From a virus (Duplodnaviria; Caudoviricetes), in IMG/VR virus record IMGVR_UViG_3300011115_000699, positions 1 to 53,643 of that record: DNA of 53,643 bases; one strand, given 5' to 3'. Position numbers and translations under genes: made by a program. The notes below the pieces were generated by a model. It ran no database searches and was not told where the DNA came from. It saw only the letters and a list, made by a program, of their open reading frames with translations. Positions within the stretch are counted from its first letter, which is position 1. Each line of letters begins with the position of its first letter. Of the stretch, positions 6,693 to 49,314 are shown in pieces.

Positions 6693-6694
6693 TT

Positions 6695-8495: not shown

Positions 8496-8513
8496 TGGTA
8501 AAATCTGAATATG
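8496..8513 (+). promoter_or_regulatory. Extended -10 (TGG-TAAAAT) 6 nt before ATG, leaderless-type promoter
   Basis: TAAAAT 8499-8504, ATG 8511, no SD sequence. Confidence 0.5.
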
Positions 8514-17039: not shown

Positions 17040-17040
17040 C

Positions 17041-20398: not shown

Positions 20399-21232
20399 TC
20401 AGTCTGTGCAAGGCCCACGAACAGACCTTAGTGCCGCTGATGCCATGTCGTTGATATCTGTCACCTTCTTCATGGCAGATGGCAATGTTGACCTATTGTC
20501 CGATGCCGCCGCCGACCAGTGCTTCCAGAGAGAGCGCACGGTAACCATGGTTGACTGCTTCCATTGTCGATGAAGGTTACGTGTTCTGATACCAACCTCA
20601 TCAGCGGTAACACCCGACCGAATCATCTCCCGTAACACCAGGTGAACACCCTGCCACTCCCCAACACTAAACTCCAGTGGATAAGACAGCGCTTCCCTAT
20701 AGGCTTGGTAAAGGATCAATGCTGGATCATCATCCTTTGGTAATCCAACCATTGACTTAGCCTTCTTGGGGACTATAGGGGTAATTACTTCTTTCTTAAT
20801 CTGGTTCAATGTAATGGGGGGTATAAAATCTGTCCCCTCCAGGGATATAAAATTTGTCCCCTCCCTCTGCTTTTCAAAGTCATCTATCTGATCCTGAGTT
20901 GGCATCACAATGTAGAGGTTACTTGTCTGCCGTCCGTTCTCCGCCCGTCTTTCACTCACTGCAAGTACTCTCTGAGACCCCACAGTGACCGTACAGAGAC
21001 GTTTGATGGCGGTCTTGACAGTTTGCTCACTGAGTCCTGTCTGCCGGGCTAGTTTAGCCAAACTCGGCCAGCACACATTCGTGCTTCCGATGTGCATCAT
21101 CAAGCACGTCATCACCATCCAGTCAGATGGCTGGAACAGATGCAGGTTTTCGACAAGCTCTGTCTCCAGCCTGATGAACGTCACGTTCTCTACTCGTGAT
21201 CCATACGACCGTCCACTGAATACACCTATCAT
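20399..21232 (-). CDS. Replication initiator (HTH_36-type N-terminus)
   Basis: CWPSLAKLARQTGLSEQTVKTAIKRL..RQTSNLY; internal direct repeats. Confidence 0.8.
   Translation of the reverse strand: MIGVFSGRSYGSRVENVTFIRLETELVENLHLFQPSDWMVMTCLMMHIGSTNVCWPSLAKLARQTGLSEQTVKTAIKRLCTVTVGSQRVLAVSERRAENGRQTSNLYIVMPTQDQIDDFEKQREGTNFISLEGTDFIPPITLNQIKKEVITPIVPKKAKSMVGLPKDDDPALILYQAYREALSYPLEFSVGEWQGVHLVLREMIRSGVTADEVGIRTRNLHRQWKQSTMVTVRSLWKHWSAAASDNRSTLPSAMKKVTDINDMASAALRSVRGPCTD
20822..20864. repeat. Two 19-bp iteron-like direct repeats inside the initiator gene (probable origin)
   Basis: TATAAAATCTGTCCCCTCC (20822) and TATAAAATTTGTCCCCTCC (20846), 24-bp period. Confidence 0.65.
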
Positions 21233-25113: not shown

Positions 25114-25555
25114 AGTTAGGTTTCACTATGCCTTTTAGGCGATCACGGCAGAAACCACACTTCCAAGGTGGAGTCCAAGTACCTTCCAAGAATCCATCAA
25201 GCAGCTCGTAAAGGTAAGCGACCCGTATCCACTTGTAACTGTTCTCAGTGTATTGATTGCGGATAGCAAACGTATTGAGTGGTCGGCCATCTTCAGTACA
25301 TAACCAAAGCCGGTCACAGTTATCAATCTTCTCTGCAAGTTTGATATCTTTGGCATTCTCATCGGTCAGGATGAAGTTGCATACATCGAGCTTCCATGAC
25401 GGCCAGATCACGGTAACAATGATGTTGTTCTCCTTGACCCCAACCTTTGTACGGAAGTGTTTGTATCCATCAGTGATGGCGATATCTGCATCCAACCTAA
25501 GAGCATTTAGTATTGATTCACTAGCCTGGTGGGCTTCACGAATTGTCATTTCCAA
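25106..25555 (-). CDS. Hypothetical protein
   Basis: GGAGG SD before TTG; C-terminal CxxC. Confidence 0.6.
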   Translation of the reverse strand: MEMTIREAHQASESILNALRLDADIAITDGYKHFRTKVGVKENNIIVTVIWPSWKLDVCNFILTDENAKDIKLAEKIDNCDRLWLCTEDGRPLNTFAIRNQYTENSYKWIRVAYLYELLDGFLEGTWTPPWKCGFCRDRLKGIVKPNFG

Positions 25556-25988
25556 AACGAGCCTCCTTCCGTGCCTTCACGCTGTCATCTGTTTCTGCAT
25601 ACCAATCCATGACGCCGGTATGTTCTTTCTTTAGTCCATCTATGATGCTATGGGTCAGCGTGTGACCCAGGTCAATGAGCAGATGGAGTTCGGCTACTGT
25701 ACTGTAACTGTCATCGATGACATACCCGACCGGCAGGTCAAGGCATTCATTCAATGAGTGATCGTGTTCAGTGATGCTGGCAAACAAACCCAAGTCTGTG
25801 CTGATCTGCAGCTCATTCCGCTCGTTGATCTTGATGCTGGTCTCGTACGACTTTGTTGCTTCCATGTAGTGTGGATTGAGATCGTTAGAGTTGGATTGCA
25901 TAGCGAGTGTGTTGAGCGTTGCAATCATGTGTTGGATTGACTGCACAGCATCTTCGATAGTTACTGCTGGACGTTGTGTGTATTTCAT
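25536..25988 (-). CDS. Hypothetical protein
   Basis: ATGA coupling, AAGGA SD. Confidence 0.6.
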   Translation of the reverse strand: MKYTQRPAVTIEDAVQSIQHMIATLNTLAMQSNSNDLNPHYMEATKSYETSIKINERNELQISTDLGLFASITEHDHSLNECLDLPVGYVIDDSYSTVAELHLLIDLGHTLTHSIIDGLKKEHTGVMDWYAETDDSVKARKEARFGNDNS

Positions 25989-26206
25989 TTGGATTCCTTG
26001 ATCCGTACCTCTCCATCAACAGTGGTGATGTAAACGCGGGTATCACCTTGCTTGTAAGTGACGTACAGAATTGCGCCAGTAGCTGCATTTGAAATGGTTG
26101 TGGCATACGGACTGTTAACTGCAGCCATGAGTGCCTTACCATAGTCATCAAAAACCACATTGCATTCTGGGTATCTGTTTGTGTGAACGATGTACTTGTT
26201 TTCCAT
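25985..26206 (-). CDS. Hypothetical protein
   Basis: GGAG SD; in operon. Confidence 0.6.
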   Translation of the reverse strand: MENKYIVHTNRYPECNVVFDDYGKALMAAVNSPYATTISNAATGAILYVTYKQGDTRVYITTVDGEVRIKESK

Positions 26207-26208
26207 AA

Positions 26209-26604
26209 TTACTTAACTCCAAACCAATATGGCAGATTGTCTACCATAACCTCATGTATCTTAGACATTGACCACTCACGTTCCTTGGCGTCGTAAGCGG
26301 TATTGATCATTGATTCTGCCCAACCGTCAAAGTCGTGTGTGTTATCGAACACGTCATCGAAGTTGACGCTGGTTTGTTCAACGTAGACGCACAGCGAAGT
26401 AAGAAACAAACCTGTGACCAGGTCGTGATCTTCCTCTGAGTTGACATCCAACGTGAGACATTCACCTGCCGTGATGACGGCATCAGTTAGGTCGAGTGCC
26501 AAGCCCCACACATAGGGGGCTGGCTCTGTGTCTTTAGTGTAGTGACCCTGGTCATCCCAGTGATCTGAGAATCCGGACTCCCACTCTACCAAGTCTTTAT
26601 TCAA
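26209..26604 (-). CDS. Acidic hypothetical protein, first gene of the leftward operon
   Basis: GGAGG SD 9 nt before TTG; strongly Asp/Glu-rich. Confidence 0.65.
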   Translation of the reverse strand: MNKDLVEWESGFSDHWDDQGHYTKDTEPAPYVWGLALDLTDAVITAGECLTLDVNSEEDHDLVTGLFLTSLCVYVEQTSVNFDDVFDNTHDFDGWAESMINTAYDAKEREWSMSKIHEVMVDNLPYWFGVK

Positions 26605-26646
26605 ATGTACAAGCCTCCATAACGTACCTCTAAGATTTACAAGGAC

Positions 26647-26675
26647 ATTACATCACCTCTATTCAGACCCCGCAA
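26647..26675 (-). promoter_or_regulatory. Sigma70-type promoter TTGCGG-17-TGTAAT
   Basis: -35 at 26670-26675, -10 at 26647-26652, upstream of the leftward operon. Confidence 0.6.
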
Positions 26676-26842
26676 GCAAGTGTGGGTACTATTTTCAGCC
26701 ATATACATCAGCATTACTTGCTGTGTGTGTGTGCGCTCGCCCGGCGCCGTTGATCCAAGCAGGGAATGCAATATGGGAATTGGTGCTGGAGTGGATGAGG
26801 ATTCCCAGCATCATTATCAGCCATCAATACCTGCGTGTGTGT

Positions 26843-26874
26843 GTGATGGTTCCGAGCGCAGCGAGGAACATCAC
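26843..26874 (+). repeat. GA-GC-GNA-GC-GA DNA hairpin (plus-strand copy)
   Basis: GTGATG-GTTCC-GA-GC-GCA-GC-GA-GGAAC-ATCAC. Confidence 0.7.
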
Positions 26875-27198
26875 CCGGCAGGGTGATCCAGCCCTGGGTG
26901 GCAGGGTGGGAGGGGGGATAGCAGCCCCCTGGCAGCCGTCAGGCGCCCGAAAAGCCCTGGACGCAGCCCAAAGCTGGACGCGGAACCGGCACCGGATCAA
27001 AATCCTGGCAGCCCGACTCCCCCACTCCCCCCCCGGATCGATGTCCCCCTGATTTCGGGCCTGGATCCGGTCCCCCACTCCCCCACCGCGCAGCATACCG
27101 GTCTATTTCGCCCAAATACCGCAGGTATCCCCCTGCCGAGATAATCTGCCAGCCTGGCATATAACGCGCCTATTTGGCGATCCTAGCAGCCCAGACGC

Positions 27199-27230
27199 AA
27201 AAAGATCCGGCACCTGGAAGGCACCGGATC
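27199..27230 (-). terminator. Intrinsic terminator of the island operon
   Basis: GATCCGGTGCCT-TCC-AGGTGCCGGATC followed by TTTTT on the minus strand. Confidence 0.75.
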
Positions 27231-27311
27231 GAGATCGAAGCGGAGAGCTTTATCGGTTATCTCGCTCCAGCTTTATCAGGAGTGACAACCCGGCCCAGAT
27301 CAAGAGCATGA

Positions 27312-28205
27312 TTATAATGTGGATGCTGCACCTACACTTTCACCGGCGCGCCGAATGCGCATTTGAATGAGCTTGGATTTTCCGCCGTGCGCAGCAAATC
27401 CAATCGTGATATTTTTCTCCTTCAAAAAATCATCCTGCCAGCACAGGCGACAGCTCATGCACGTGACGTCTGATTTGCCCGCAGATTTCGCAACCTGCTG
27501 CGGGCATGGCAAAAGCGTACCACCATCCGGAAGCGGTGAAGGTATCGCGCGCCCGGCATCATTGACATCGAACTGATCGACGACCAAAGCTGTCGCATAC
27601 CCTGCTGATTTGGCGGCTGGAATGTCGTCGACGGAATCACACGATGCAAGAATCGAAACACCCTGCCACGATGAACGCGCCACCGAGCGCCACGCATGAG
27701 TATAAGACCAAACAGGCGCACCATGCACCGACTGGTACCGCATAGCAGCAGATGCAACGGTATGCGCCGAATAATCGGAAATGCAATCGCCCACAATGTG
27801 AATACGAAGCGGAAGCGCCGCGTACATTGTCATGCAGTCAATCGCCTGAGCTTCCGCATCCGCTACATCATCCGGCGATACTTGCAAGCCCCCAGCGCCC
27901 AGCGCCGCCACGTTAACCCGGCGCGTGGTGAAAGCACAATGTCCCTCTGTCGCATAACATCCGGCATTGTACAAAGCGCAAGGATTGAGATCCGTTGCAC
28001 GGTAGCCGGGACATGATACCTGTGATGTCCAGGTAACAGCACACGGCCCTGTTTTACCGTCGTCCGTGCCATACACAGGGACAACGAGATCAGCGAGCGG
28101 ATGCGACCGGGATTTCTTCGCCCTTACGAAGGCGATCCGCTCAGTGACAGAGACGCCCGCAGGGATTTGCCATTTCCGAATGGCAGCTACAAGACTAGTA
28201 GACAT
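27312..28205 (-). CDS. Cys-rich putative Fe-S protein (phage gp88-like, radical-SAM-related)
   Basis: SCP..C..GCYA, RIHIVGD, WSYTH, CPQQ..TCMSCRLC, IGFAAHG; start 28205 with GGGAG SD. Confidence 0.6.
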   Translation of the reverse strand: MSTSLVAAIRKWQIPAGVSVTERIAFVRAKKSRSHPLADLVVPVYGTDDGKTGPCAVTWTSQVSCPGYRATDLNPCALYNAGCYATEGHCAFTTRRVNVAALGAGGLQVSPDDVADAEAQAIDCMTMYAALPLRIHIVGDCISDYSAHTVASAAMRYQSVHGAPVWSYTHAWRSVARSSWQGVSILASCDSVDDIPAAKSAGYATALVVDQFDVNDAGRAIPSPLPDGGTLLPCPQQVAKSAGKSDVTCMSCRLCWQDDFLKEKNITIGFAAHGGKSKLIQMRIRRAGESVGAASTL

Positions 28206-28292
28206 AACGTAAATTCTCCCCAAACAAACCCAAAGAATAGCCTACCAGGCACACCCGCAGGTATGCAGCTGGTAGGCATGGAATCCGGATCC

Positions 28293-28508
28293 CTAAACAG
28301 ATCCGGAAAATGTAGCCAACAGAGAATCAAAATCCCCAGCGGCCCAACGGATCAGAATATAGCGCGTGATGTCCCGCGCCGACTTGGTTCCCCAGTATCG
28401 CCCAGGTACGTGATCGATCATGCGCACGGCTATGTATTCGCCGACGCCAGCCGACTGCAAGGACGTACTAACAGACTGCATTTTTCCCCAAATAGATCCC
28501 CGTTGCAT
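28293..28508 (-). CDS. Hypothetical protein
   Basis: ATG directly after upstream TAA. Confidence 0.5.
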   Translation of the reverse strand: MQRGSIWGKMQSVSTSLQSAGVGEYIAVRMIDHVPGRYWGTKSARDITRYILIRWAAGDFDSLLATFSGSV

Positions 28509-29285
28509 TTAGATGTCCCCCTGCCGACCGGGACCCGATGTAGAATCCCAAAGCTCTGCGATATCGCGGAAGATATCCCGGTATGGATGACCCGAGATTC
28601 TACCGGCAGCGCCAAGCTCGCACCATTTGCAGAGGAGAAAGAAATCACCATAAGTGGTGATGTCCCGCATGGTATCTAAATACCGTTGATACGGATCCCA
28701 ATGAGGAGGATCAGCGCAGGTAGCCAACTCATGCACCCGCCCCCAATACCACTCATAAAACGAAGCAACCTGCCCGCGTACAAATTCCCTATGCCATTGA
28801 TCGAGATCGAGAACGCGCCACACGAGAACGCCGGGGAAATAATCCGTTGCATTTGTTTCCCAGTCCCGCCGAGGATCAGTAACGCGATCCGCTGCCGGGA
28901 TAAATTCCGCAGGGATATCGCGGAAACTTGCATCAAGCGCTTTATAGGCGTGACGCGCTTTATCGCAGACGTGCAAACGATCCGCACCTGCAACGATAAC
29001 ACGGCAAAGCTGGTACGCTTGACGGCGAGACAATGCCAACCGCGTACGTGACATCAAGTGATTGACACAGCGTAGCCGATTGAACACGCGCCGTTCCACG
29101 CCGTCGGAAATGGTGGAAGGATGCAAGCTGTCAAGCTTGGAAGGTTCGAAACCCGTAGCCGAGATCATCGACTCCACAGATGCATGGAAATCAGGCGAAC
29201 CCGAACCATACCCGCGAACAGCGAAGATCGATGCAGCCCTAAGCGTAGCGTACCGCGCATCATGCCCAGCGTATTTAAATGCCAT
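28509..29285 (-). CDS. Hypothetical protein
   Basis: Start reassigned to 29285 (AAAGGGG SD plus TACGTTATG). Confidence 0.65.
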   Translation of the reverse strand: MAFKYAGHDARYATLRAASIFAVRGYGSGSPDFHASVESMISATGFEPSKLDSLHPSTISDGVERRVFNRLRCVNHLMSRTRLALSRRQAYQLCRVIVAGADRLHVCDKARHAYKALDASFRDIPAEFIPAADRVTDPRRDWETNATDYFPGVLVWRVLDLDQWHREFVRGQVASFYEWYWGRVHELATCADPPHWDPYQRYLDTMRDITTYGDFFLLCKWCELGAAGRISGHPYRDIFRDIAELWDSTSGPGRQGDI

Positions 29286-29346
29286 AACGTAAACCCCTTT
29301 ATAGAATCCCTGCCAGGTGAAGCCCAGCAGGGATAGAACGACGAAG

Positions 29347-29889
29347 CTAATCGATGCGAGATCCGGAAGTAATCTCAATTTTTGACGTAGCCGGGAAATC
29401 CTGGCCCCAGTCATCGATTGACTCGCGCAGCGATTCTACAAACGCATCCGCAAATGCCCGTTTGCGATCATAAGACTGCCCAAACTCGCGAACCCACAGA
29501 GAAAGCCCGGTGCCAGAGTATGAAGGAGAAAAGCCCGCATCGATGAACGCTTGACGCATCAAGCCCCGCGCGCCCTTCACATTTACCCATGCAAATCCAC
29601 AAATACCAGAATGCACATAGAAAGCTTCACGGTTCGAGGGGCATTGTTGAGTAATCCAGCCTATAGGTTCGACAGTGACTGTAGATGCAGCTCGCGTACC
29701 TTCCGAGGTAGCATTTGCCACGCTATCGGTAATAAGGGAATGCAAGAGCTCGCGATCAAATGCGCGCTCAGCGGATTTCTTCGAGATCATCGAGCGCCAC
29801 GCCGCGGCAGCTTCGCGCTTGTGAACAGCGCAGTATTTAGAACGCGCAGCAGTATGAAGGTTACAACCCTCAGATGCACAGGTAGACAT
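29347..29889 (-). CDS. Conserved phage protein (CGFAWV family) with N-terminal C-C-C-H finger
   Basis: GICGFAWV..QSYDRKRAFA..SRID pattern recalled from phage hypotheticals; CASEGC..YCAVH. Confidence 0.7.
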   Translation of the reverse strand: MSTCASEGCNLHTAARSKYCAVHKREAAAAWRSMISKKSAERAFDRELLHSLITDSVANATSEGTRAASTVTVEPIGWITQQCPSNREAFYVHSGICGFAWVNVKGARGLMRQAFIDAGFSPSYSGTGLSLWVREFGQSYDRKRAFADAFVESLRESIDDWGQDFPATSKIEITSGSRID

Positions 29890-29931
29890 AACGTAAATTC
29901 TCCCAACTTCAAAACAGAATCGAACAGAGAC

Positions 29932-29960
29932 ATATTACAGGCGAGATTGTAACCCCGCAA
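29932..29960 (-). promoter_or_regulatory. Sigma70-type promoter TTGCGG-17-TAATAT
   Basis: -35 at 29955-29960, -10 at 29932-29937; shares CTTGCGGGGT with the 26670 promoter. Confidence 0.6.
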
Positions 29961-30161
29961 GTAATAAGGCAAACGATTTGCCCGGAGGTTCCCAGGTTAT
30001 AAGACGGCTAAGGCATCGGATCCCGATCAATGGAGTAAATCTAAGGGTGATTTGTATTGGATTTTGATGCAGCTAACGCCAAATATTTACCAGCGATTTG
30101 TATAGCATCATTACCTGCGGTGTATATCTGTAATGCCAACCAGGGGATATTTTGCCCTCAA

Positions 30162-30251
30162 AAAATCGATTTTGTACTGCAAGCCCGCGCCTACTGCCGA
30201 GCAGCTGCAAGCGCCTAAAACGCCCCCGCAAAAATCGATTTTGAACTGCAA
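30162..30251. repeat. Direct repeat of palindrome AAAATCGATTTT plus G(T/A)ACTGCAA
   Basis: Copies at 30162 and 30231, 69-bp period. Confidence 0.7.
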
Positions 30252-30389
30252 AGCGCCCCTGTCATCTGTTCAGCTCGCGATCCTGCAGCGCTGCAGCTCA
30301 GAAAAAATACCGGAACGGATCAATACTACGCCGGAATGCGGCAGCCCTTGTGTTAGCACAGCACCAGGCCCCCCAGTCGGGTTCCAGGA

Positions 30390-30618
30390 ACCTTCGCATA
30401 CGCTCAGGTACCGTATTGTCTGTGTACGCAAAGCAAAGGGTAGGAACGAGATACCAGGTTCGCTACGCTCACCTGTTGAGGGGAACCACACACCCTGTGT
30501 AGCCGATAAGGCACCCCCCTCCCCGTTCCAATCCCCTTCGCTACGCTCAGGGTCTGTAAAAGGTAACACGCTCAGTTGTGTGGGAGGAGACAGTGCCGTG
30601 TCACTACGTTCCCCGGCA
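30390..30618 (-). repeat. Cluster of four GA-flanked GNA-loop DNA hairpins
   Basis: 30390-30409 (4-nt GTAT loop variant), 30455-30475, 30534-30552, 30594-30618; different but paired lower stems. Confidence 0.75.
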
Positions 30619-30858
30619 GAGACCTTGCCCTGTACTTGCGTGAGTCCTGTGTGGTCTTGTGTGGGTGTGTGATTCCAATTACCTGGCATATATACCTGCG
30701 TGTCTTGTGTGGGATGCTTCGCTATTGGGTGAACCTGGAATCCGTTGGTGGGTGTCCGCAAAGTGGGCTGGAATCCGCCGGGCAGCTGCCGACCTGATCG
30801 GTCGGTCTGGATCCGCAGACCTGATCCCCTCCCCTCCCCCGCCCTGATCGGAAGGCAT

Positions 30859-30887
30859 AAAAATACCCCGACTGGATGTCGGGGTAT
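30859..30887 (-). terminator. Intrinsic terminator
   Basis: ATACCCCGAC/GTCGGGGTAT stem followed by a T-run on the minus strand, just after ORF 30897. Confidence 0.8.
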
Positions 30888-30896
30888 CTGTTGGGG

Positions 30897-31127
30897 TTAG
30901 AGCGTTGGAACCGACAGGTTATCCTTGCAATAGCCCCAGCCCCTTAGGAACGCCAAGGTGCTAGCGCTATCCCCGGAATGTATCTGGTATCCCGCCCGCC
31001 CCGGCTGGATGTCATCGGTCAAATAGAGCGTATACCAGTATCCCGGCATATTCCCTTGAATCTGCAAGTCAAGCTTGAAAGCCCGCGCCTTGCGCATGAT
31101 GATAGTTTTGTATGGTTTACGTTCCAT
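30897..31127 (-). CDS. Hypothetical protein
   Basis: GGAGGGG SD; ATG directly after upstream TAA. Confidence 0.6.
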   Translation of the reverse strand: MERKPYKTIIMRKARAFKLDLQIQGNMPGYWYTLYLTDDIQPGRAGYQIHSGDSASTLAFLRGWGYCKDNLSVPTL

Positions 31128-31361
31128 TTACTTATTCCCCTCCAGATCCCGCAAGCAAGTATCAGCTGAGGTATTGACAGCACACCACCAACCGAGCGTA
31201 TTCCAGCAACCATAAGCCGTCAAGCCCAGCACCAACAGTGCGAACACTTGAAACCAACTCCCCCAAAAGATGAACACGGCAACGTAGACGAATAGAGCTG
31301 AGGAAAGCGCAAAGCCTACCAACAGCATAACGATTCCCAAAATAGCGAGTGCATTTTTCAT
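31128..31361 (-). CDS. Small two-TM membrane protein
   Basis: Two hydrophobic helices; AAAGGA SD plus TACGTTATG. Confidence 0.65.
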   Translation of the reverse strand: MKNALAILGIVMLLVGFALSSALFVYVAVFIFWGSWFQVFALLVLGLTAYGCWNTLGWWCAVNTSADTCLRDLEGNK

Positions 31362-31411
31362 AACGTATTTCCTTTAGTTGCCGGGGATATTTCACCCCGG
31401 CAGATTCCCAA

Positions 31412-31885
31412 CTAGCGTGATTCCCCAGCGTATAAACAATCCACAAGGCACAGCGGAAGATCAGTAATATTGATTTCTGATTTGATGTAATGAATCACTT
31501 TCGCGATGATTTCAGATGCAGACTCCGCCGTCAGTCTGTCATCTTGAATATTTACCCCAAGCTCTTCATTTGTATACCCAAGGATACAGGAGACGACATT
31601 TGAAGAATCACCAAACCATTCCCCGATTTCGTCTAGGATAGTTTCGATTTCGTAGAATCCCCCGCACCCTTTATCACCGTCAAGCGTCAAGGTTCCGTTA
31701 TCATAAATCATCTGCAAAATAGAATCATGGTCTAACAACTGAATAAAGCCCGGACATTTCTTATTTGTAATAATGTCGCCGGCAACCCCTAGCAGAATGC
31801 TAATGGATGTCAGATCACAGCACGTCAAGGGCTGCGTTACAAGTTGCAGATCAGGTGCGATTTGCAAGCGTGAACCGGTGTTCAT
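31412..31885 (-). CDS. Acidic hypothetical protein
   Basis: GGGAG SD plus TACGTTATG. Confidence 0.65.
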   Translation of the reverse strand: MNTGSRLQIAPDLQLVTQPLTCCDLTSISILLGVAGDIITNKKCPGFIQLLDHDSILQMIYDNGTLTLDGDKGCGGFYEIETILDEIGEWFGDSSNVVSCILGYTNEELGVNIQDDRLTAESASEIIAKVIHYIKSEINITDLPLCLVDCLYAGESR

Positions 31886-32101
31886 AACGTATATACTCCC
31901 AACTAAGTCACAAGCGTTGGAACGATTCCAACGTCTATAGGTTCGACAGCAGATCAGGTATTTCCTTCCGAGTCGGACATATATTTTCAGTTATTTTTTC
32001 CGGCTGGATCAGGGCTGGATTTACTAGCGGGGTATATAGGCGCGATTTGTACCGCCACGCAGCTACACAGTCCGATTTTTGCCGGGGGAGGGGTCGGGTT
32101 T

Positions 32102-32241
32102 CAACCGACTTCGCTTCGCTCAGTCGTTGTAGCCTACGGCTCTAAGACTGCCAGGTTGTGGGTGTGTGCTTCCTTGTTCTCTTCGTCCTTGTCGTCCTTC
32201 GCTTCGCTCAGGCCGAGAGTCCTCGGTCGGCTTCGCCTCCC
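32102..32241 (-). repeat. Second cluster of GNA-loop DNA hairpins
   Basis: 32102-32129, 32131-32141 (no GA pair), 32192-32216, 32225-32241. Confidence 0.75.
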
Positions 32242-32445
32242 TTCGGTTCCTTGTGTACTTACTTGCCTCCTTCCTACTTCCTCTTCCTTTTGTGTGCGTG
32301 TGGGGGGTGTGGCAACCCCCACCCCCGTATATATGTACCATTCCCCCCGTCCCCTACAGAACATCTCCTTACTTCTTACTTCTCCAACTGTAGAAACAAC
32401 CACACTCCCCAAAAATAGATGTATACTTGCGTGGGAGGTAACTTT

Positions 32446-32703
32446 ATGGTTACGATTGACAAGGCTCTGCGGCATTTGATGATTGGCAAGCCTGTGCGTC
32501 TCGCGTACTGGCAAGACAACGAATACTTGCGGTATTCAGAGTTGTTTGAAGTGTACGAGATGGTATGTGGTGGGGAAAAGCATCACCTGGAGCAGTTAAA
32601 CCTCCCTGGCGAGAGTTTCTGCGCTCCTGAGTGGGTATTGGGTGAGTTTGATCCAGTGCGTGAGGATGTTATCCATTGGAGTGAAGATGCCGAAAAGAAG
32701 TAA
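32446..32703 (+). CDS. Tad2/DUF2829-like protein (divergent)
   Basis: KALRHLMIGKPVRLAYW..SFCAPEWVL; TATACT and GGAGG upstream. Confidence 0.45.
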   Translation: MVTIDKALRHLMIGKPVRLAYWQDNEYLRYSELFEVYEMVCGGEKHHLEQLNLPGESFCAPEWVLGEFDPVREDVIHWSEDAEKK

Positions 32704-32896
32704 TTGGACAGAGGAGCAGAGACAACGAGAGCGTAATACTGACAAGGTGCGCCGTGACTCTGTTGAATACGATGTGTTCGACCAGGATGGGTACAAGATC
32801 AAGTCCTACAGCAAGAAGGTTAGTGCTGAGATTTGGTGCAACGACCACGATGGTCATACGTTTCTGAGGACGTACTTGCGTGATAAGCATGGATAA
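32687..32896 (+). CDS. Hypothetical protein
   Basis: GGAG SD before ATG 32687. Confidence 0.5.
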   Translation: MPKRSNWTEEQRQRERNTDKVRRDSVEYDVFDQDGYKIKSYSKKVSAEIWCNDHDGHTFLRTYLRDKHG

Positions 32897-33287
32897 GCGT
32901 AGGAAATTGACTGATGCCCAAGTAGATGGGATTCGTGAGATGCTTGCCGAAGGGCATACCTTGGAGCGCATTGCCAGAGAGTTTAATGTCAGCGATAGTC
33001 ATGTCCACCGGATCAAGGATGCACACAGTAAGGGTGAAGTAAAACTCAAGCGTTCATCTTTGTCGAGCTGCATGAATCTGATTAAGGCTGGTATGCCATT
33101 CAAGCGCGTTGCTTGGGGAGACCACTTCTATTACTTCTATGACACCGAGGAGTCTTGGTTTATAAAGCATAGATGTCTAGGGGAACATGGCGATGACTAC
33201 GAGATTATTGAGTACACGCTCGATCTTAGTATGGAGGACCTGATGGCGAAGGACTGGGTTGTACTTACGTGGGAGTCAGTAGAATGA
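32889..33287 (+). CDS. HTH domain fused to Tad2/DUF2829-like domain
   Basis: KLTDAQV..IREM..G.TLERIAREFNVSDSHVHRIK, then LIKAGMPFKRVAW..LSMEDLMAKDWVV. Confidence 0.7.
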   Translation: MDKRRKLTDAQVDGIREMLAEGHTLERIAREFNVSDSHVHRIKDAHSKGEVKLKRSSLSSCMNLIKAGMPFKRVAWGDHFYYFYDTEESWFIKHRCLGEHGDDYEIIEYTLDLSMEDLMAKDWVVLTWESVE

Positions 33288-34674: not shown

Positions 34675-35310
34675 TTACTGTATGTAATGCGCTTCAAACG
34701 CAGCAGTCGTTACTGGTAGTACATCTTTCAGTACATTCCAGCAGTCCGTAGCAAGCTCTCGATGCTCTTCTTGGGTATGTTCATCCATACGTACACGGCA
34801 GTAATGCAACCAATCACGCACAGTACCCTTCATGTACAACCTGGTGCCTACACACATAGGTAGAACCATCCTGGCTGACTCAAGGGCTACACCGTGCTTG
34901 ACAAGGTCATCGTAGGCACGAACGGCAACCAGGATCGATGCCAACGCCTTGTTGTCCATCTCAAGTTGTGTTTCTTCATCCTCAAATGAAACACTGCCTT
35001 GACGGTTAGTTGAACCTTTGCGGCGCATCGATGGCAAGTCCAACTCAATCTTGCCAGGGTTAGCATACCGTTGACTAAATTCTTGAAAATGGAAGCTCCT
35101 GTGACGCAAGATCTGTGCTGAGATTGCCCTGGACGTGTAGATTTCCATCGTCACGTCAACCATCTCAAACACGCTCCAATGCCCATGTTTGATGCAGTAC
35201 GTGAGTAACTTCTCGTAGTCAGGGTTATCTGGGTTACTCGATGAAACCCGCGCAAGATGAATCATAAACTTCTCTGCGTCAGGCTGTATGTGCTTTAGTG
35301 TTGCTGCCAT
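34675..35310 (-). CDS. thyX: FAD-dependent thymidylate synthase
   Basis: GHWSVFE, QILRHRSFHFQEFSQRY, ESARMVLP. Confidence 0.96.
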   Translation of the reverse strand: MAATLKHIQPDAEKFMIHLARVSSSNPDNPDYEKLLTYCIKHGHWSVFEMVDVTMEIYTSRAISAQILRHRSFHFQEFSQRYANPGKIELDLPSMRRKGSTNRQGSVSFEDEETQLEMDNKALASILVAVRAYDDLVKHGVALESARMVLPMCVGTRLYMKGTVRDWLHYCRVRMDEHTQEEHRELATDCWNVLKDVLPVTTAAFEAHYIQ

Positions 35311-35715
35311 CTAAACTCCTGTACTTCCAAATCCACCTGTGCCACGCTTGAGCGCGTTCTTCTCTACTGGTTGCACCAACGTCATCTGTAACAGTTGAGC
35401 AACGCGATCACCACGCCTGTATTCAAAGGTGGTCTTGCCCAGGTTACACAACAACACGCCGACATGACCGTCATAGTCAGCGTCAATCACACCAGGTGCA
35501 TTGATTACAAACACACCTTTACTTGCCATCCCAGACCTACTGCACACCAGGCCCACAGTGTTCTCTTCAAGCAACACCTTGATGCCAGTCGCTACGTGTA
35601 CAACATTGTTCGGTTCCACGCGCCCGTCATCGATAGCGCGTAGGTCGTAACCTGCTGATTTAGACGTCGCTCGCGTAGGTATAAACCCATTCAACTCAAC
35701 TACAAAGTTCATCAA
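35311..35715 (-). CDS. dut: Trimeric dUTPase
   Basis: AGYDL, RSG, GVIDADY, RVAQL, RGTGGFGSTG. Confidence 0.96.
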   Translation of the reverse strand: MMNFVVELNGFIPTRATSKSAGYDLRAIDDGRVEPNNVVHVATGIKVLLEENTVGLVCSRSGMASKGVFVINAPGVIDADYDGHVGVLLCNLGKTTFEYRRGDRVAQLLQMTLVQPVEKNALKRGTGGFGSTGV

Positions 35716-35793: not shown

Positions 35794-36096
35794 TTGATTA
35801 CTATTGCAAGGGCTGATCGCAGCTGCAATGTCACTGTGAAGATTCAGCATCTTCCTGATGGTGTGTACTTCCACATCACTGCGCCCAACGAAACCGTAGC
35901 CGAGCGTTACACTCCTGTCCAGGCATGGAATTTCCTGTACAGTTGCGTAGAACTTGGTGATGTAACTATCCCTACAAAGACGCTTCTTGAGATTGCCGAC
36001 ATGGTAATCCAGTACTTTGCACCACAAAAACGTGCAACGCCTGTGAGTGTTGAGATGGGATCGATGTCCTTTGATGGAGGAGATATCGATGGTTAA
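35794..36096 (+). CDS. Hypothetical protein
   Basis: GGAGG SD before TTG. Confidence 0.55.
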   Translation: MITIARADRSCNVTVKIQHLPDGVYFHITAPNETVAERYTPVQAWNFLYSCVELGDVTIPTKTLLEIADMVIQYFAPQKRATPVSVEMGSMSFDGGDIDG

Positions 36097-36499
36097 TCGT
36101 GTAGTCCTTACAGGGCGCCTGTGCGCTGATCCAGAGCATAAGACATCAGCCGCTGGCAAGTCTATCTGCTCGCTTCGTATCGCTGTGGACCGCAAAGGTC
36201 GCGAGAAGGAGACGGACTTCTTTGACGCGACGGCTTTTGGTCAGGTCGCTGACTTTGTTGGCACCTACATCAAGAAGGGTCGCATGGTTGGTATCGATGG
36301 CAAGCTGCGCACCAGGGAATACGAAGCCAAAGATGGTACACGCCGTAAGGTGTACGAGATCATCGTGGATGATGTAACCGCTCTTGATCGTCCAAAGGAC
36401 GGTGACCCAGGTGGATTCACCGAGCAGTCAAGCGGAATCAAGCCAGCTGCAAAGCCCCAGGCCCAGACCCAGGATATTGATGACCCATTCGCGGAATAA
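36089..36499 (+). CDS. ssb: Single-stranded DNA-binding protein
   Basis: NRVVLTGRL..DPE, TDFF, KGRMV..G.L.TREY, acidic tail DIDDPFAE; GGAGG SD. Confidence 0.96.
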   Translation: MVNRVVLTGRLCADPEHKTSAAGKSICSLRIAVDRKGREKETDFFDATAFGQVADFVGTYIKKGRMVGIDGKLRTREYEAKDGTRRKVYEIIVDDVTALDRPKDGDPGGFTEQSSGIKPAAKPQAQTQDIDDPFAE

Positions 36500-36561: not shown

Positions 36562-36767
36562 ACTTTGTCAACAATCTGATCAGACAACTCTTCGTCATCA
36601 GTCAGCTCTACAACCAAGTACCAGATTGCTTTGTGAAGATCCTGGTTCTTGTACTGCTTGTGATTGCACCTGGCAACGTACTTGATTACGTTGAACAAGT
36701 GAGGGTTCAGACCCCAATCCATGGCAAATTTCCGTGGACTGGGACCTTTCCTGTAATGCTCAACCAT
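36540..36767 (-). CDS. DUF3310 family protein
   Basis: HY..NVIKYVAR..K..QDLHKAIWYL; likely start ATG 36767. Confidence 0.8.
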   Translation of the reverse strand: MVEHYRKGPSPRKFAMDWGLNPHLFNVIKYVARCNHKQYKNQDLHKAIWYLVVELTDDEELSDQIVDKVKKHSLS

Positions 36768-38535
36768 CGTTAGATTCTCGGATGACTGCACTGGCCTTGG
36801 TAATCTGTTCGCCAAGCCACTTGATGACCGGGACTGCCATACTGTTTCCAAGTGCTTTGAATCTTGCTCCGTCTGTTGCGGTTTCAAGTACTGCATTTTG
36901 TTCTTCGGGACATCCATACTTACCCAACTCCTCTCTAAAACACCCAGCCTTGGATTTGTACCAACGTATGTCAGTGTATCCATCTGGGAATCCTTGAAGA
37001 CGCTCACACTCAACTGGTGTAAGGCGCCTGACAATCATGTTTGTATGAACAGCAGGAACAGAGTTACCACCAGCACTAGACATCAATGTAGGGGATAGTG
37101 TTTCGCTGTATCCAATGGACCTGGCAGCTGCACCTTGTCCTAACTTGAACGCACCTACATCATGGGCAACGTACTGATCAGGAGTGGTCGCTATCGTGTA
37201 TGCACACTCATCTTGTCCCATGTAACCGGCTCCTCCTCCTCCAGGTTTCGGTGTTCCACCGCTCACACCAGAGTAATGACCAATGCCACGTACTTTGAAG
37301 ACATGAGCAACACCTTGCGTAGCCATGCTGTCGAGCGTGTATGACGGATCACCATCATCACCTATACCCATGCCGTTCTGTTTCTTCTCTATGTCTCGGA
37401 CATCCTGGATTGGTATGGCGCCTTGCACAACATAGTTAATTGCATGATGACTTGTTGTTGCTGGTTGCGCAGCTTGTAAGCAGTTTGCTACTTCACTCTC
37501 TGTCGCACTGAACGTGTTAGCCTTAGCGTCTTCACGGACGCTGTAGACAGAGGTATGGCTAACGATTGGTGTATTCCCACCACCAGTGCCAAACCTGGCT
37601 ACAACCGTCTGGCACGTCTCGCCCATCTCTTTCACACGACTGTCAGCCGGGTGGGTTTCATACGCCTGGACTATGGTGTGCGTTGATCTGATATCACCGA
37701 TGTCAAAACAATTAAGTGTATTACTGACATCTGCTTCTACCCACGTCTCGTATCCGTCAGCAGATGTAGCACGAGTAGACTTACGGTAAGCCGTTGTGTC
37801 TACTATGTATGGACGATCTTTGACAGACGTAATAGTAGGAGAAAGATCACCTTCTATGATTTCCGCTTTTGCTTGACCGGACGCAACAGCAATTAACTCT
37901 CCGTCATCGTTACTGCTATCGATTCCAGTGCCAACTTGAGGGTTGGCGGCAGTTGTCTTCCTCTTACTTCTGCCCTCCGCAGGATTCCGACACACGCTTT
38001 CGCGCTCAAATAATACCGAGGATGGATGTCGCCAATCGCCTGAAGAGTGCGCGACAACAAAGACACGTCTGCGTCTTTGCGCGACTCCGAAGTACTGAGC
38101 GTCCAGCACTCGCCAGGACACGCTATACCCGATACTGACCAACGCCCCGATGAAGGCTCCAAAATCCCGTCCTCCGTTACTCGACAGGACACCAGGGACG
38201 TTTTCCCATATGACCCACTCAGGACGTACGTGGTCAACCAGACCGACAAAGGCAAGGGCGAGGTTACCACGTGGGTCATCCATTCCTTTTCTGAGTCCTG
38301 CGACTGAGAAGGATTGACAGGGGGTGCCTCCGATAAGAACGTCAACTGAACCTCTTGCAATGTTCCATTCCTTATACTTGGTTAGATCGCCGTAGTTCTT
38401 GACACCAGGATAGTGTTGATCCAAGACACGGGATGGGAATGCATCAATCTCAGCAAACCCTACGGGAGTCCAACCTAAAGACTCCCAGGCTACACTCGCA
38501 GCTTCTATACCACTGCAAACGCTTAGGTACCGCAT
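36760..38535 (-). CDS. C5 cytosine DNA methyltransferase with expanded modular variable region
   Basis: CSGIEA, GGTPCQ, ENVPG, QRRRRVF, RRLTPVECERLQGFPD, ALGNSMAV. Confidence 0.95.
   Translation of the reverse strand: MRYLSVCSGIEAASVAWESLGWTPVGFAEIDAFPSRVLDQHYPGVKNYGDLTKYKEWNIARGSVDVLIGGTPCQSFSVAGLRKGMDDPRGNLALAFVGLVDHVRPEWVIWENVPGVLSSNGGRDFGAFIGALVSIGYSVSWRVLDAQYFGVAQRRRRVFVVAHSSGDWRHPSSVLFERESVCRNPAEGRSKRKTTAANPQVGTGIDSSNDDGELIAVASGQAKAEIIEGDLSPTITSVKDRPYIVDTTAYRKSTRATSADGYETWVEADVSNTLNCFDIGDIRSTHTIVQAYETHPADSRVKEMGETCQTVVARFGTGGGNTPIVSHTSVYSVREDAKANTFSATESEVANCLQAAQPATTSHHAINYVVQGAIPIQDVRDIEKKQNGMGIGDDGDPSYTLDSMATQGVAHVFKVRGIGHYSGVSGGTPKPGGGGAGYMGQDECAYTIATTPDQYVAHDVGAFKLGQGAAARSIGYSETLSPTLMSSAGGNSVPAVHTNMIVRRLTPVECERLQGFPDGYTDIRWYKSKAGCFREELGKYGCPEEQNAVLETATDGARFKALGNSMAVPVIKWLGEQITKASAVIRESNDG
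37893..38360 (-). CDS. Nested out-of-frame ORF, candidate MTase beta polypeptide
   Basis: 155 aa in another frame; AAGGA SD before TTG; WTLSTSE..YYLSAKACVGILRRAE.RG..LP motif. Confidence 0.6.
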   Translation of the reverse strand: MQEVQLTFLSEAPPVNPSQSQDSEKEWMTHVVTSPLPLSVWLTTYVLSGSYGKTSLVSCRVTEDGILEPSSGRWSVSGIACPGECWTLSTSESRKDADVSLLSRTLQAIGDIHPRYYLSAKACVGILRRAEVRGRQLPPTLKLALESIAVTMTES

Positions 38536-39775: not shown

Positions 39776-41752
39776 ATGCCAGACATTCCTAAAGGTCATA
39801 AAGTAATTGACACGGTAAAAGACAACAAGGGCTTTTATCGAATTATTCAACGCCCAGATGGAACAAAGTATAGTCAAACACTAAAACTGTTCACTGAGCA
39901 AGATAACGACAGGAAAGTACGCGCAGAAAACAAATCCCTAGGTCAGTATTCAACCACCAACATTAAAGGCAACATGGCAAACGCTATGGCGTTGACTGCC
40001 GTTGGTGGTGGTGCTACTGCCTTGGCTTTGCATAATGCTACACAAGGACGCCAAGACAAAGTCGGACGAAAAGTCCGTGGTGCTGCGTTTGGTAATACTA
40101 GACCACAAGGTGTTGGTTTAAAAACTCCTGCTGGTACAGCAGGTGACGTACGTGGACGAATATCAACTGATCGTCCTCCTGCTATTGTTAGATCAGTAGA
40201 CAGTTTTAATAAAAGAGGTTCAACTATGCCACAAACTGGCGATTTATTTAATCAACCAGAACCACCAAGTGGTGGTACTAAAAAAGCCGGTACACGTTAT
40301 GCTCCAGCCGGTACGGCTAAGGCTACAGGTAAAGGCACACGAGGTGTTCCACGTCCTGCTCCAAGATCAAGTGGAAAACCTACTGGATCAGCGCCTAAAA
40401 CTCCAGTAACGCAAGCACGACCTACGCCACTTGCACCAAGTCGCTTGGCAGGTAGTCCTATTAGACCTAAATTCAGGCCTTCACCATTGCAACCACCTAT
40501 GCCAAGTAAGATATTAGAAAGTCCAATTAATACCTATACAAGGCCTGGATACAGTGAAAGTTATCTCCCTGGTGGAGGACGACCACCGGTAAAAGGTCCA
40601 GGTGGTACGGAAATACGCCCAGGGCAAGGCAGTATTTATGACGTAAGGTCTAAATTCGATCCAAATCGTCTTGCTACCCGTGCAGGTTTACCAGGACGTG
40701 TACAACCGCAACTATCTGGTGCGGCACAAGCTGCACAAGACATGGCATCAAAATCCTCAACCAGTGGCAGTGCTAAAAAAGCCGGTACGCGTTACGCACC
40801 AGCTGGAACTGCTAAAGCCACTGGTAAAGGTACTCGTGGTGTTCCACGTCCTTCTCCGCGCTCTAATTTCAAACCGGCTACTGGAGCAAAACCAACTGGT
40901 GGTATGCCAGCACAACTTAGTCAGATGCCTCCAGGTGGTGCTGGTCCAACTGCACCAGGTAGAACTAATGTTGCCGGTGCTATTAATCAGTCAAAGATGC
41001 CAGCGCAGTTTAAGCAAATGCCTCCAAGTGGTGCTGGTCCAACTGCCAATGTCCCATCGCGTTTGACACAAAGCATTCCAAAGCCTGGTTTCCTCAATAA
41101 CATAAATAAATTTGTTAGTAATTTAGGTAAGGGACGCACCGGCATAAAACAAGTAGATGCAATGTATCAAGCTGCTGGAATGATTGATAAATATGGTGGC
41201 GAACCATATCGACAACATATGGCTGCGCATCCAGAAGATAAAAAAATGACCCCGATGCAATTAAGCACACATATACGGGAGTCGAAACTTGAAGCACCAA
41301 AAGCAACACTAGCAGCAACTGCGCCAGCTGCATCTGGTGGCAATAAGCCAGTCGGTGGACAAAAGCCTTACGAACCTAGGTACTTCCCAGAAGCTGGTGG
41401 CAATGGTAATGCTGTTCGTAAACCTGATAGTTACCTTGGTGAAGCGTTTGACTACTCACTTCAAAAGGGTACTACATCTGGAAGCAAGTACCTGGAACAT
41501 ATGTTCCGCCGTGACAAGGTTAGTGAAGACGATCAACAGCGACTGCGCGAGCGGTTCAACAAGAAGGTTGTTGGAGATCTGACGCTTAAAGAATATGGTG
41601 CTGACAAAGGGATTACTCAAACCCTTGAAGGTAAGAAGTCTGGTCTTGGTGAAGCATTGCTTGGCAAGTATCGAGACACTGGTACCTACAAAGGTAATAC
41701 CGATTACGATGTCATGCGAGCAGCTGCTGAAGCAAGAATGGCAAGGAAGTAA
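39776..41752 (+). CDS. Basic Pro/Gly-rich, probably disordered protein with internal repeats
   Basis: 658 aa; duplicated 26-aa and 17-aa peptides. Confidence 0.75.
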   Translation: MPDIPKGHKVIDTVKDNKGFYRIIQRPDGTKYSQTLKLFTEQDNDRKVRAENKSLGQYSTTNIKGNMANAMALTAVGGGATALALHNATQGRQDKVGRKVRGAAFGNTRPQGVGLKTPAGTAGDVRGRISTDRPPAIVRSVDSFNKRGSTMPQTGDLFNQPEPPSGGTKKAGTRYAPAGTAKATGKGTRGVPRPAPRSSGKPTGSAPKTPVTQARPTPLAPSRLAGSPIRPKFRPSPLQPPMPSKILESPINTYTRPGYSESYLPGGGRPPVKGPGGTEIRPGQGSIYDVRSKFDPNRLATRAGLPGRVQPQLSGAAQAAQDMASKSSTSGSAKKAGTRYAPAGTAKATGKGTRGVPRPSPRSNFKPATGAKPTGGMPAQLSQMPPGGAGPTAPGRTNVAGAINQSKMPAQFKQMPPSGAGPTANVPSRLTQSIPKPGFLNNINKFVSNLGKGRTGIKQVDAMYQAAGMIDKYGGEPYRQHMAAHPEDKKMTPMQLSTHIRESKLEAPKATLAATAPAASGGNKPVGGQKPYEPRYFPEAGGNGNAVRKPDSYLGEAFDYSLQKGTTSGSKYLEHMFRRDKVSEDDQQRLRERFNKKVVGDLTLKEYGADKGITQTLEGKKSGLGEALLGKYRDTGTYKGNTDYDVMRAAAEARMARK

Positions 41753-41756
41753 CCGA

Positions 41757-41781
41757 AGGGGAGCAAACGCTCCCCTTTTTT
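41757..41781 (+). terminator. Intrinsic terminator
   Basis: GGGGAGC-AAAC-GCTCCCC-TTTTTT. Confidence 0.8.
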
Positions 41782-41805
41782 CTTGTCTGCCGTATACTTA
41801 CGTGC

Positions 41806-44296: not shown

Positions 44297-44436
44297 TGCT
44301 CAATGGTATTATTCAAGTTGCATTATTGGTTGTTATTGCTACATTTTCAGCATTGACTTACCGTGACGTACGATGGTTTCGCATGGAACAACAGCAACGA
44401 ATTGATCGGATTAAACAAGGTGAGAGGTACTTATGA
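44296..44436 (+). CDS. 46-aa single-TM protein, absent from ORF track
   Basis: TAATG and ATGA coupling at both ends; N-terminal hydrophobic helix. Confidence 0.55.
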   Translation: MLNGIIQVALLVVIATFSALTYRDVRWFRMEQQQRIDRIKQGERYL

Positions 44437-46697: not shown

Positions 46698-46720
46698 TCG
46701 TGCTAAAATGGGAGACATAA

Positions 46721-47617: not shown

Positions 47618-47628
47618 GGTAGAAAATT

Positions 47629-48678: not shown

Positions 48679-48688
48679 GGAGTAACTG

Positions 48689-49270: not shown

Positions 49271-49273
49271 GTT

Positions 49274-49302
49274 AAAGGGGAGGGGAAACCCTCCTCTTTT
49301 TT
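49274..49302 (+). terminator. Intrinsic terminator after capsid genes
   Basis: GGGGAGGG-GAAA-CCCTCCTC-TTTTTT. Confidence 0.75.
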
Positions 49303-49314
49303 GAAAGGAAACGT

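Follow-up and report, generated by a model that had tools for sequence, protein, structure and literature searches.

The window analysed here is the whole of IMG/VR virus record IMGVR_UViG_3300011115_000699, a linear stretch of 53,643 bases from a freshwater phage, for which CheckV estimates a completeness of 86%; about 14% of the genome is missing, and open reading frames (ORFs) are cut at both window ends. Annotation by Pfam and PHROGs scans distinguishes, among other units, a leftward replication operon, a leftward operon in which a DUF7227 protein is encoded, three small leftward genes, and a rightward early operon (Table 1). The three spacers that separate these units (26605-27311, 29890-30896 and 31886-32445), which together make up about 2.3 kb or 4% of the window, hold all eight copies of a small DNA hairpin, designated A to H, that is the subject of this report.

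The hairpins share a common plan, in which a variable Watson-Crick outer stem is followed by a tandem 5'-GA/GA-3' purine mismatch, a clamp of two G-C base pairs (bp), and a GNA triloop, the tandem mismatch being flanked on its 5' side by a pyrimidine and on its 3' side by a purine. The copies that carry the exact core GAGCGNAGCGA (A, C, D, F and G) have Watson-Crick outer stems of 5, 5, 4, 5 and 3 bp, respectively, whose letters differ. The centre of the loop is C in hairpin A, T in C, D and E, TA in B (whose loop comprises four nucleotides, nt), and A in F, G and H. Similarity is greatest between adjacent copies: 15 identical bases are common to F and G, and one loop to C and D. Hairpin A can be extended by 5 bp with one bulged G (26843-26874), and a second hairpin at 26870-26887 overlaps this extended form. 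In hairpin E the upper stem is altered on both sides (from GC/GC to AC/GT), while four of five outer-stem positions are paired; hairpin H, with a three-pair top and an outer stem of just 2 bp, is a weak DNA fold. The purine-rich strand is the plus strand for A and the minus strand for B to H. A 179-residue ORF on the plus strand (30133-30672), which spans B to E, reads the hairpins as ...SLRS... twice.

The exact core occurs five times in the window against 0.04 expected, a number that none of 100 shuffles reached. A covariance model, constructed from 58 aligned hairpins (of which the window supplied six and other loci 52) and run over the window with filters off, recovered A to G with E values between 1.6e-6 and 0.015, the next match having an E value of 6, and missed H. 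The bare core pattern with up to two mismatches was found 32 times, where 34.9 occurrences were expected, and since this is the level of chance, the case rests on exact cores and on pairing. As a background, 60 unrelated loci (274,076 bases) contained two such hairpins. The three spacers look non-coding, because none of the seven ORFs that overlap them has a PHROG match and because relatives display 1- and 2-base indels within the spacer of F to H. An earlier reading of the sequence (hereafter the original prediction) had described eight hairpins in non-coding spacers, one on the plus strand and seven on the minus strand, including the GTAT loop of B, the AC-GTA-GT upper stem of E and the GGC-GAA-GCC top of H; all of this is borne out, with H as a weaker variant, as is the view of a structure-defined, strand-polarised family with covarying stems and an invariant GA/GA. 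Rfam gave no match at gathering score in the window, and at E values up to 10 the hairpin region and six repeat-rich bacterial loci gave chance-level matches only. Searches with blastn of 26000-33000 against phage records produced no match, and the stretch of F and G produced short matches to phages (22-32% of the query, E 0.03-4) that are taken as chance, since most fall under annotated genes.

Table 1. Coordinates of the hairpins and of other features of the window (position 1 is the first base of the record).
Feature	Position	Strand	Description
Hairpin A	26843-26875 (core hairpin 26849-26869)	+	GTTCC-GA-GC-GCA-GC-GA-GGAAC
Hairpin B	30390-30409	-	ACCT-GA-GC-GTAT-GC-GA-AGGT; 4-nt loop; model E 0.015
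Hairpin C	30455-30475	-	CAGGT-GA-GC-GTA-GC-GA-ACCTG
Hairpin D	30534-30552	-	CCCT-GA-GC-GTA-GC-GA-AGGG
Hairpin E	30596-30616	-	GA-AC-GTA-GT-GA; model E 0.002
Hairpin F	32106-32126	-	CGACT-GA-GC-GAA-GC-GA-AGTCG
Hairpin G	32196-32212	-	CCT-GA-GC-GAA-GC-GA-AGG
Hairpin H, weak variant	32225-32241	-	GG-GA-GGC-GAA-GCC-GA-CC
Exact core GAGCGNAGCGA	26854	+	
Exact core GAGCGNAGCGA	30460, 30538, 32111, 32199	-	
TACCTGCGTG motif and alternating TG tract	26828-26846	+	directly 5' of hairpin A; module conserved in G002 and G003
TACYTGCGTG, sites	26828, 30633, 30693, 32424, 32873, 35762	+	
TACYTGCGTG, site	35736	-	
TACYTGCGTG, one-mismatch sites	20389, 28254, 29954, 31152	-	
TACYTGCGTG, one-mismatch sites	33262, 41795	+	
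TACYTGCGTG copies with TG-rich tracts	30633-30642, 30693-30702 (region 30633-30702)	+	just past hairpin E
TG tracts, G-/C-runs	26722-26740, 26833-26846, 30655-30675, 32157-32173, 32287-32310, 26907-26920, 27018-27088, 30838-30852		
Intrinsic-terminator-like hairpin	27204-27230	-	ends 29889 to 27312 operon; parts operon from spacer with A
Terminator-like hairpin and T run	30857-30886	-	ends 31885 to 30897 operon; precedes cluster E-B; read from sequence and fold
Leftward replication operon	26604 to 17829	-	O-like initiator, DnaB-like helicase, Gam-like protein
O-like initiator gene	20399-21232		
Leftward operon	29889 to 27312	-	includes DUF7227 protein
DUF7227 protein	27312-28223	-	
Leftward set, three small genes	31885 to 30897	-	
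Rightward early operon	probably starts at 32446	+	
Structural block	39776-53643, continuing 1-17832	+	large terminase, P22-like portal, major head protein (Pfam/PHROGs)
2842-residue protein	8511-17039	+	C5-cytosine methylase domain, residues ~1930-2220, nearest M.HhaI; sole domain seen
591-residue protein	36760-38535	-	second C5-methylase domain
Thymidylate-synthase-like and dUTPase/dCTP-deaminase-like genes, adjacent	34675-35715	-	
Shared translation start regions	28191-28224, 29875-29908, 31871-31904, 31357-31373, 29287-29300	-	

The hairpins occupy the promoter-distal parts of the spacers that separate early transcription units: two of the spacers are preceded by a terminator and followed by the next promoter, and the third lies between divergent operons. 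It is of note that, of the two terminator-like hairpins, the one at 30857-30886 is absent from the listing of the scan that supports the one at 27204-27230. A motif, TACYTGCGTG, is over-represented in the window, with 21 sites at up to one mismatch against 6.6 expected, seven of them exact. Because many start codons have it 1-70 nt upstream on their own strand, and because one copy (41795) directly follows a terminator-like hairpin, the motif probably corresponds to the 3' part of a -10 element together with a conserved discriminator of the phage promoters; at 41795 the ATG stands just one base beyond the motif, which suggests a leaderless mRNA. A sigma-70 scan gave matches at chance level (six found, 5.6 expected). 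The TACCTGCGTG form of the motif precedes hairpin A by 12 nt on the same strand; no copy other than A would be transcribed in the purine sense from an adjoining motif. The copy at 32424 precedes the first rightward gene, whose start is probably the ATG at 32446, located behind GGGAGG, rather than the listed ATG at 32419. The three spacers also contain alternating TG tracts and long G- or C-runs, sequences prone to non-B-DNA structure, as well as a direct repeat, TCCCCCACTCCCCC, at 27018 and 27071; CTGGAT(C) recurs many times. The description of the hairpins as bracketing an early island is fair for A as against B to E, while F to H form a third cluster beyond the island.

A search with the portal protein led to three useful related records, G001, G002 and G003. 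The first of these is about 88-91% identical at the nt level and, in a contig that lacks the equivalent of window 17.6-30.8 kb, retains F (with a GAAT loop), G (identical) and H in a highly conserved spacer. G002, at about 70-75% nt identity, carries two hairpins that are significant under the covariance model and whose stems are unlike those of the window (TCTCAGG/CCTGAGA with a GATA loop, and ACC/GGT with GAA); the pair lies in a region that has conserved promoter-region blocks in common with the 32.2-32.45 kb spacer of the window, is on the same relative strand, and is found at similar distances from the first start codon. In addition, G002 possesses an A-like hairpin (7-bp stem, GA, one-pair top and GTA loop; model E 0.055) that directly follows a conserved TACCTGCGGG-(TG)n tract, part of a TACCTGCGKG-(TG)n module, and that lies on the strand opposite the replication operon, as A does in the window. 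Place and polarity are kept over moderate divergence while the stems change, and no presence/absence polymorphism of the hairpins was seen among the near relatives compared.

Several further observations concern these relatives. G002 has two copies (36071-36095 and 36266-36290) of a repeated promoter-like block, GCGAACGCACGTGAGT(A/C)TAGAC, and in G003 a TACCTGCGTG ... GGCAATACTAGCGTGG module occurs twice on the minus strand (38158 and 41282). Also present in G003, on the plus strand, are three perfect hairpins topped by GC-GAAA-GC, the other type of Hirao mini-hairpin (39409, 40416 and 43961); at least the last of them is followed by a T run and is terminator-like. Contigs 94-100% alike to parts of 25500-33000 occur in a second viral-metagenome run and in another study's riverine metagenome (X2, X3), and diverged relatives occur in a run of a named organism (X8). 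Several relatives have other sequence in place of the gene at 31412-31885 and of the stretch beyond 30750. Positions 30541-30750 and 32181-32584 are covered by a contig from an RNA library, for which carry-over of DNA is possible. Relatives of the DUF7227 protein are many, at 33-44% identity, and were placed in nine viral and 60 metagenome loci; a hairpin was found in none of the nine viral loci, and one hairpin each in two of the 60 metagenome loci, while the close DUF7227 locus, L277 (80% amino acid identity), is not homologous downstream. Searches with the proteins encoded by 31412-31885, 26209-26604 and 29347-29889 found no relatives in viral contigs.

The hairpins of the window are members of a very widespread family of short interspersed hairpin repeats that has expanded patchily. 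A wide scan with a pattern of two cores 55-85 nt apart matched at least 110 viral contigs and at least 120 bacterial or archaeal contigs. When every core in these loci is counted, and not merely the recruiting pair, outer stems of at least 3 bp are present, among the matches listed, in 83 of the 363 viral cores and in 83 of the 391 bacterial ones, where chance would give about 1.6%; among the 110 viral loci listed, 23 contain at least two well-paired hairpins and 61 contain none. A tblastn search with 56 window proteins detected no kinship of these viral loci to the phage beyond isolated helicase, methylase and similar matches. Upper-stem variants within hairpin frames are fully Watson-Crick in 12 of 18 cases (seven being AC/GT, as in E) and have one G-T pair in four of 18. 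Of 118 copies, 103 have a pyrimidine-purine pair adjoining the GA, which is the context where tandem G-A mismatches take the sheared form, and among single non-Watson-Crick positions G-T plus A-G/G-A outnumber their complements by 47 to 24, favouring the purine strand.

In bacteria the consensus is tGTCA-YYCT-GAGCGNAGCGA-AGRR-TC, and the copies form arrays and inverted pairs, the latter about 105-112 nt apart. Five genomes contain 91-876 cores each, against 6-116 for a backwards control; one of them, the unpublished genome G007, which includes locus L179, has 412 copies in regularly spaced inverted pairs. The family is described as patchily expanded since, within one phylum, only some 5-6 of 61 genomes searched revealed a clear excess, a count that includes the centre genome picked for carrying the repeat. 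Crude ORF calls place the hairpins purine-rich on the sense strand in 12 tandem gene contexts and on the antisense strand in 12, and in 12 convergent and six divergent spacers. On the complete G010 chromosome, strand correlates mildly with chromosome half (plus 92/65, minus 56/79), in a test whose origin position is not established, which counts arrays as independent, and which is confounded with gene orientation. The Y1 (RAYT) transposase, PF01797, had no match in G007 or G010 and a weak one in G006 among the five genomes, whose assemblies may be incomplete; the two genomes without a match include those with 412 and 292 copies. In the bacterial locus L224, six copies with a 28-nt period (4331-4497) lie immediately upstream of a tRNA (4528-4598), and in two unrelated T4-like contigs (L035, 8133-9050; L056, 4497-6330) hairpin pairs, on a strand that differs from one contig to the other, lie upstream of a gp55-like late sigma gene. 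Contig ends frequently fall no more than about 120 nt from a hairpin or cluster (G001, at approximately window 30780; C2, C7, C43 and C46 of G007), so the repeats may break assemblies.

Likenesses to several known systems can be drawn. The GC clamp that closes a GNA loop in the Hirao mini-hairpins, d(GCGNAGC)/d(GCGNNAGC), is present in six of the eight phage copies; compared with that top, E has AC-GTA-GT, H has GGC-GAA-GCC and B a GTAT loop, and the 4-nt loops GTAT and GAAT of the phage and its relative fall outside the Hirao GNNA rule. Unlike the Hirao mini-hairpins, the phage copies add an invariant tandem GA/GA and a variable Watson-Crick stem, and they constitute a repeated family. They resemble REP, BIME and REPIN elements in being short, imperfect, extragenic palindromes that number tens to hundreds in some genomes but are scarce in others, that form arrays and inverted pairs, and that are multi-copy and extragenic both in the five bacterial genomes and in the phage, where all eight are in spacers. 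Unlike REPs and REPINs, they lack a 5' GT[AG]G, their consensus has no GTAG, the bacterial flank being tGTCA, and an association with RAYTs is not supported; nor are they species-specific, one core being common to many phyla, archaeal contigs and phages. The hairpins are of the same kind as abundant bacterial REP-like repeats, a circumstance that the original prediction had named as damaging to it if positional conservation were lacking, yet in relatives they are positionally conserved with changed stems. The Bpu elements of Cycas and Ginkgo mitochondria, reportedly described by Chaw in 2008, also show a likeness in sequence. Their consensus, as printed in PMC8297867, contains CCTGAGCGTAGCGAAGGG, which differs at just one of 19 bases from hairpin D (CCCT-GAGCGTAGCGA-AGGG) and includes the whole core; the Bpu stem pairs too. 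Bpu is a 36-nt unit with AAGG terminal direct repeats and about 500 organelle copies, and what is shared with it is the central hairpin only, as the phage copies lack those ends and the flanks of D and of the other copies differ. Finally, the PeSL cassettes of T4-type phages combine repeated stem-loops with promoter-like motifs between early gene cassettes. The phage spacers are comparable in pairing a stem-loop with a promoter-like motif, and gene replacement in the relatives ends at conserved start regions, but the PeSL stem-loops are ordinary terminator-like hairpins, unlike GA/GNA mini-hairpins.

The explanation that we prefer, with a confidence somewhat short of even, is that the hairpins are REP-like, hyperstable mini-hairpins of the purine-rich DNA strand that are retained in regulatory spacers and would act at the DNA level. 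A replication fork, or the negative supercoiling that trails RNA polymerase, would open the duplex, the purine-rich strand could then snap into an unusually stable mini-hairpin, and the folded form may serve as a structural mark or landing site within the regulatory spacer. A well-formed hairpin exists on one strand only, the purine-rich one, and folding of that strand is argued for by the invariant, non-palindromic GA/GA and the GNA loop, which a dimeric duplex-binding protein would leave unexplained. Action on DNA rather than RNA is favoured, by arguments of which none is decisive, because there is no orientation rule, because the loops are GNA triloops and not GNRA tetraloops, and because the core occurs in mitochondrial mobile DNA. 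Nearest-neighbour DNA folding recovers the proposed structure for six of the eight copies, and for E the outer stem alone. A number of points weigh on the other side. That the hairpins fold in vivo, that they act as DNA rather than RNA, and that some factor senses them are all steps that we infer. The computed fold energies, from -2 to -7 kcal/mol, are modest and show little strand asymmetry, which is attributable to a nearest-neighbour model that has no terms for sheared G-A pairs or GNA loops, and for the same reason the word hyperstable leans on the literature (PMC13037366) and not on computation. Covariation figures obtained from aligned rows that had been chosen for pairing were set aside as circular. 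In G002 the counterparts of B to E are degenerate and not significant, and the conservation of its other hairpins could reflect repeated insertion at preferred sites instead of selection in place. G003, a complete genome of 62 kb with 67% portal identity, has no hairpin match at E values up to 10, although it keeps the TACCTGCGGGTGTGTGTGATG module, and its homology to the window ends where hairpin A begins; the hairpins are therefore dispensable for such phages. The sequencing runs, moreover, provide assembled contigs without ends or strand information, and from them neither bins lacking coverage nor runs of small share were counted as evidence.

The genome that lacks the hairpins while keeping the neighbouring motif intact to the foot of hairpin A is also what would be expected if the copies were neutral passengers, that is, selfish or structure-driven REP/MITE-like hairpins inserted or copied into tolerant spacers, perhaps host-derived and of no benefit to the phage. 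Their behaviour as interspersed repeats (high copy number in some genomes only, arrays, inverted pairs and no orientation rule), the confinement of the window copies to non-coding spacers and the likeness of neighbouring copies (F/G, C/D) fit this account, which we nevertheless consider unlikely: at 70-75% nt identity hairpins with very unlike stems are still found at corresponding places and strands, in spacers that otherwise barely align, near relatives display no presence/absence polymorphism, and no mobilising enzyme was identified, the Y1 transposase being absent from the matches in two of the five repeat-rich genomes. The hairpins could alternatively be single-strand initiation (ssi) signals, which, exposed in single-stranded DNA, would recruit a PriA-type primosome or a primase for lagging-strand start or restart. 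The phage has an O-like initiator and a DnaB-like helicase, and the scans, which left several small ORFs outside, named no polymerase or primase. The exact 11-nt core GAGCGTAGCGA occurs once in ColE1 (1332-1342; 0.03 expected), between the origin region and rop, a stretch that we take to hold the PriA primosome assembly site; the original prediction had drawn this comparison, of which the shared core stands and the identity with the primosome site is presumed. GCGNAGC-type mini-hairpins are also listed, in PMC13037366, at the G4 origin, at RSF1010 ssiA and at N4 early promoters. The shared core is, however, the sole evidence of likeness to primosome sites, and the outer stem in ColE1 requires a bulge. 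Sites of the ColE1 and phiX174 type are single, whereas here there are eight copies in 5.4 kb and hundreds per bacterial genome, and the family extends to archaeal contigs and plant mitochondria, both of which lack PriA. If a lambda-like origin is assumed within the O-like gene, A fits the lagging-strand template but B to H would be on the template of the leading strand at the nearer fork, and the mild correlation of strand with chromosome half, which speaks for priming, is subject to the unfixed origin, the non-independent arrays and the confounding gene orientation already mentioned. A role in priming is, in our estimation, quite unlikely.

A role in RNA, where the transcribed purine-rich form would stabilise a 5' or 3' end, mark a site of processing or pausing, or belong to a small RNA, we regard as distinctly doubtful. 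It is suggested by hairpin A, which follows the promoter-like motif in an arrangement that recurs in G002, by B to E and F to H, whose purine-rich strand is the sense strand for the leftward operons downstream, and by the RNA-library contig, subject to the carry-over noted above; classical REPs, moreover, stabilise mRNA 3' ends. The wider family, however, has no orientation preference relative to genes, A and B to H relate oppositely to the operon that follows, and the loops are GNA triloops, with variants GTAT, GAAT and GATA, rather than the GNRA tetraloops typical of RNA. G-T exceeds A-C merely by 25 to 15, Rfam offers no matching family, and RNA folding around B to E is unremarkable on the plus strand (z -1.2) and modest on the minus strand (z -2.5). 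Early transcription could also begin at the hairpins if, as in phage N4, an injected virion RNA polymerase recognised an extruded hairpin of the template strand. N4 promoters have, according to PMC13037366, a 5-7 bp stem and a 3-nt loop with a purine centre (GGA or GAA), with GCGGAGC as the mini-hairpin. The phage copies are likewise small hairpins in which a GC clamp closes a GNA loop, and in two of the three clusters (A and F to H), upstream of early genes, the purine-rich hairpin is on the template strand of the downstream operons, leftward from 26604 and rightward from 32446; giant proteins of 1425 and 2842 residues are encoded among the structural genes. However, B to E are on the wrong strand for their downstream operon, A, C, D and E have a pyrimidine at the centre of the loop, the tandem GA breaks up the stems, the distance to the genes is variable, with start codons about 200-700 nt away, and the same element is abundant in bacterial chromosomes. 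Searches of the large proteins (1425 and 2842 residues, and other large ORFs) by Pfam, PHROGs and PDB sequence found no RNA polymerase: the 1425-residue protein resembles, at low scores, tail, muzzle or nozzle proteins, and its 2842-residue counterpart displays a C5-methylase domain only. A six-frame search for PF00940 yielded no match and is uninformative, since its controls were equally silent. The analogy with N4 that the original prediction had offered is thus highly improbable, and none of the functions it had proposed (priming, staged injection, packaging or decoying of proteins) found support.

A more general proposal, which we put forward as a speculation with the chances against it, is that the framed element Y-GA-GC-GNA-GC-GA-R represents a cross-domain, transposase-independent, self-folding DNA punctuation, read by a conserved replication or repair activity, such as loading of a restart primosome or pausing of a polymerase on single-stranded DNA. 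If true, this would explain why the core recurs in bacterial phyla, archaeal contigs, the ColE1 origin region, Bpu elements and phages, and this phage lineage would keep its strand-specific copies in the early spacers so that the first DNA to be used once inside the cell is replicated or transcribed in an organised way. Mini-hairpins, tandem sheared G-A pairs, REP-like repeats and Bpu are known already. In the literature reached, which yielded mini-hairpin chemistry and the Bpu element only, neither the breadth of one framed core (phages, several bacterial phyla, archaeal contigs, a plasmid origin region and mitochondria) nor its strand-specific, positionally conserved use in phage early spacers is described; subscription journals were thinly covered, so that an earlier description of either is possible. 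Should the hairpins be functional, they would constitute a compact, strand-specific DNA signal kept at fixed places in phage early control regions, and the same signal would be at work in many bacteria and organelles. Should they be mere passengers, they would be an ordinary repeat family, of note mainly for annotation. In practice, the repeats generate spurious ORFs, are found close to the ends of contigs in draft assemblies, and are a probable source of spurious hypothetical proteins in annotated bacterial genomes.

With regard to the rest of the window, a tRNA scan found none, and the Pfam and PHROGs scans, within the coverage already given, assigned the structural block and the replication genes of Table 1. 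The thymidylate-synthase-like and dUTPase/dCTP-deaminase-like genes, taken together with the two methylases, hint at modified phage DNA. Five leftward genes have in common a near-identical translation start region (GGGAGAATTTACGTTATG and variants), and in G001 a different gene stands behind the same start region at 31885.

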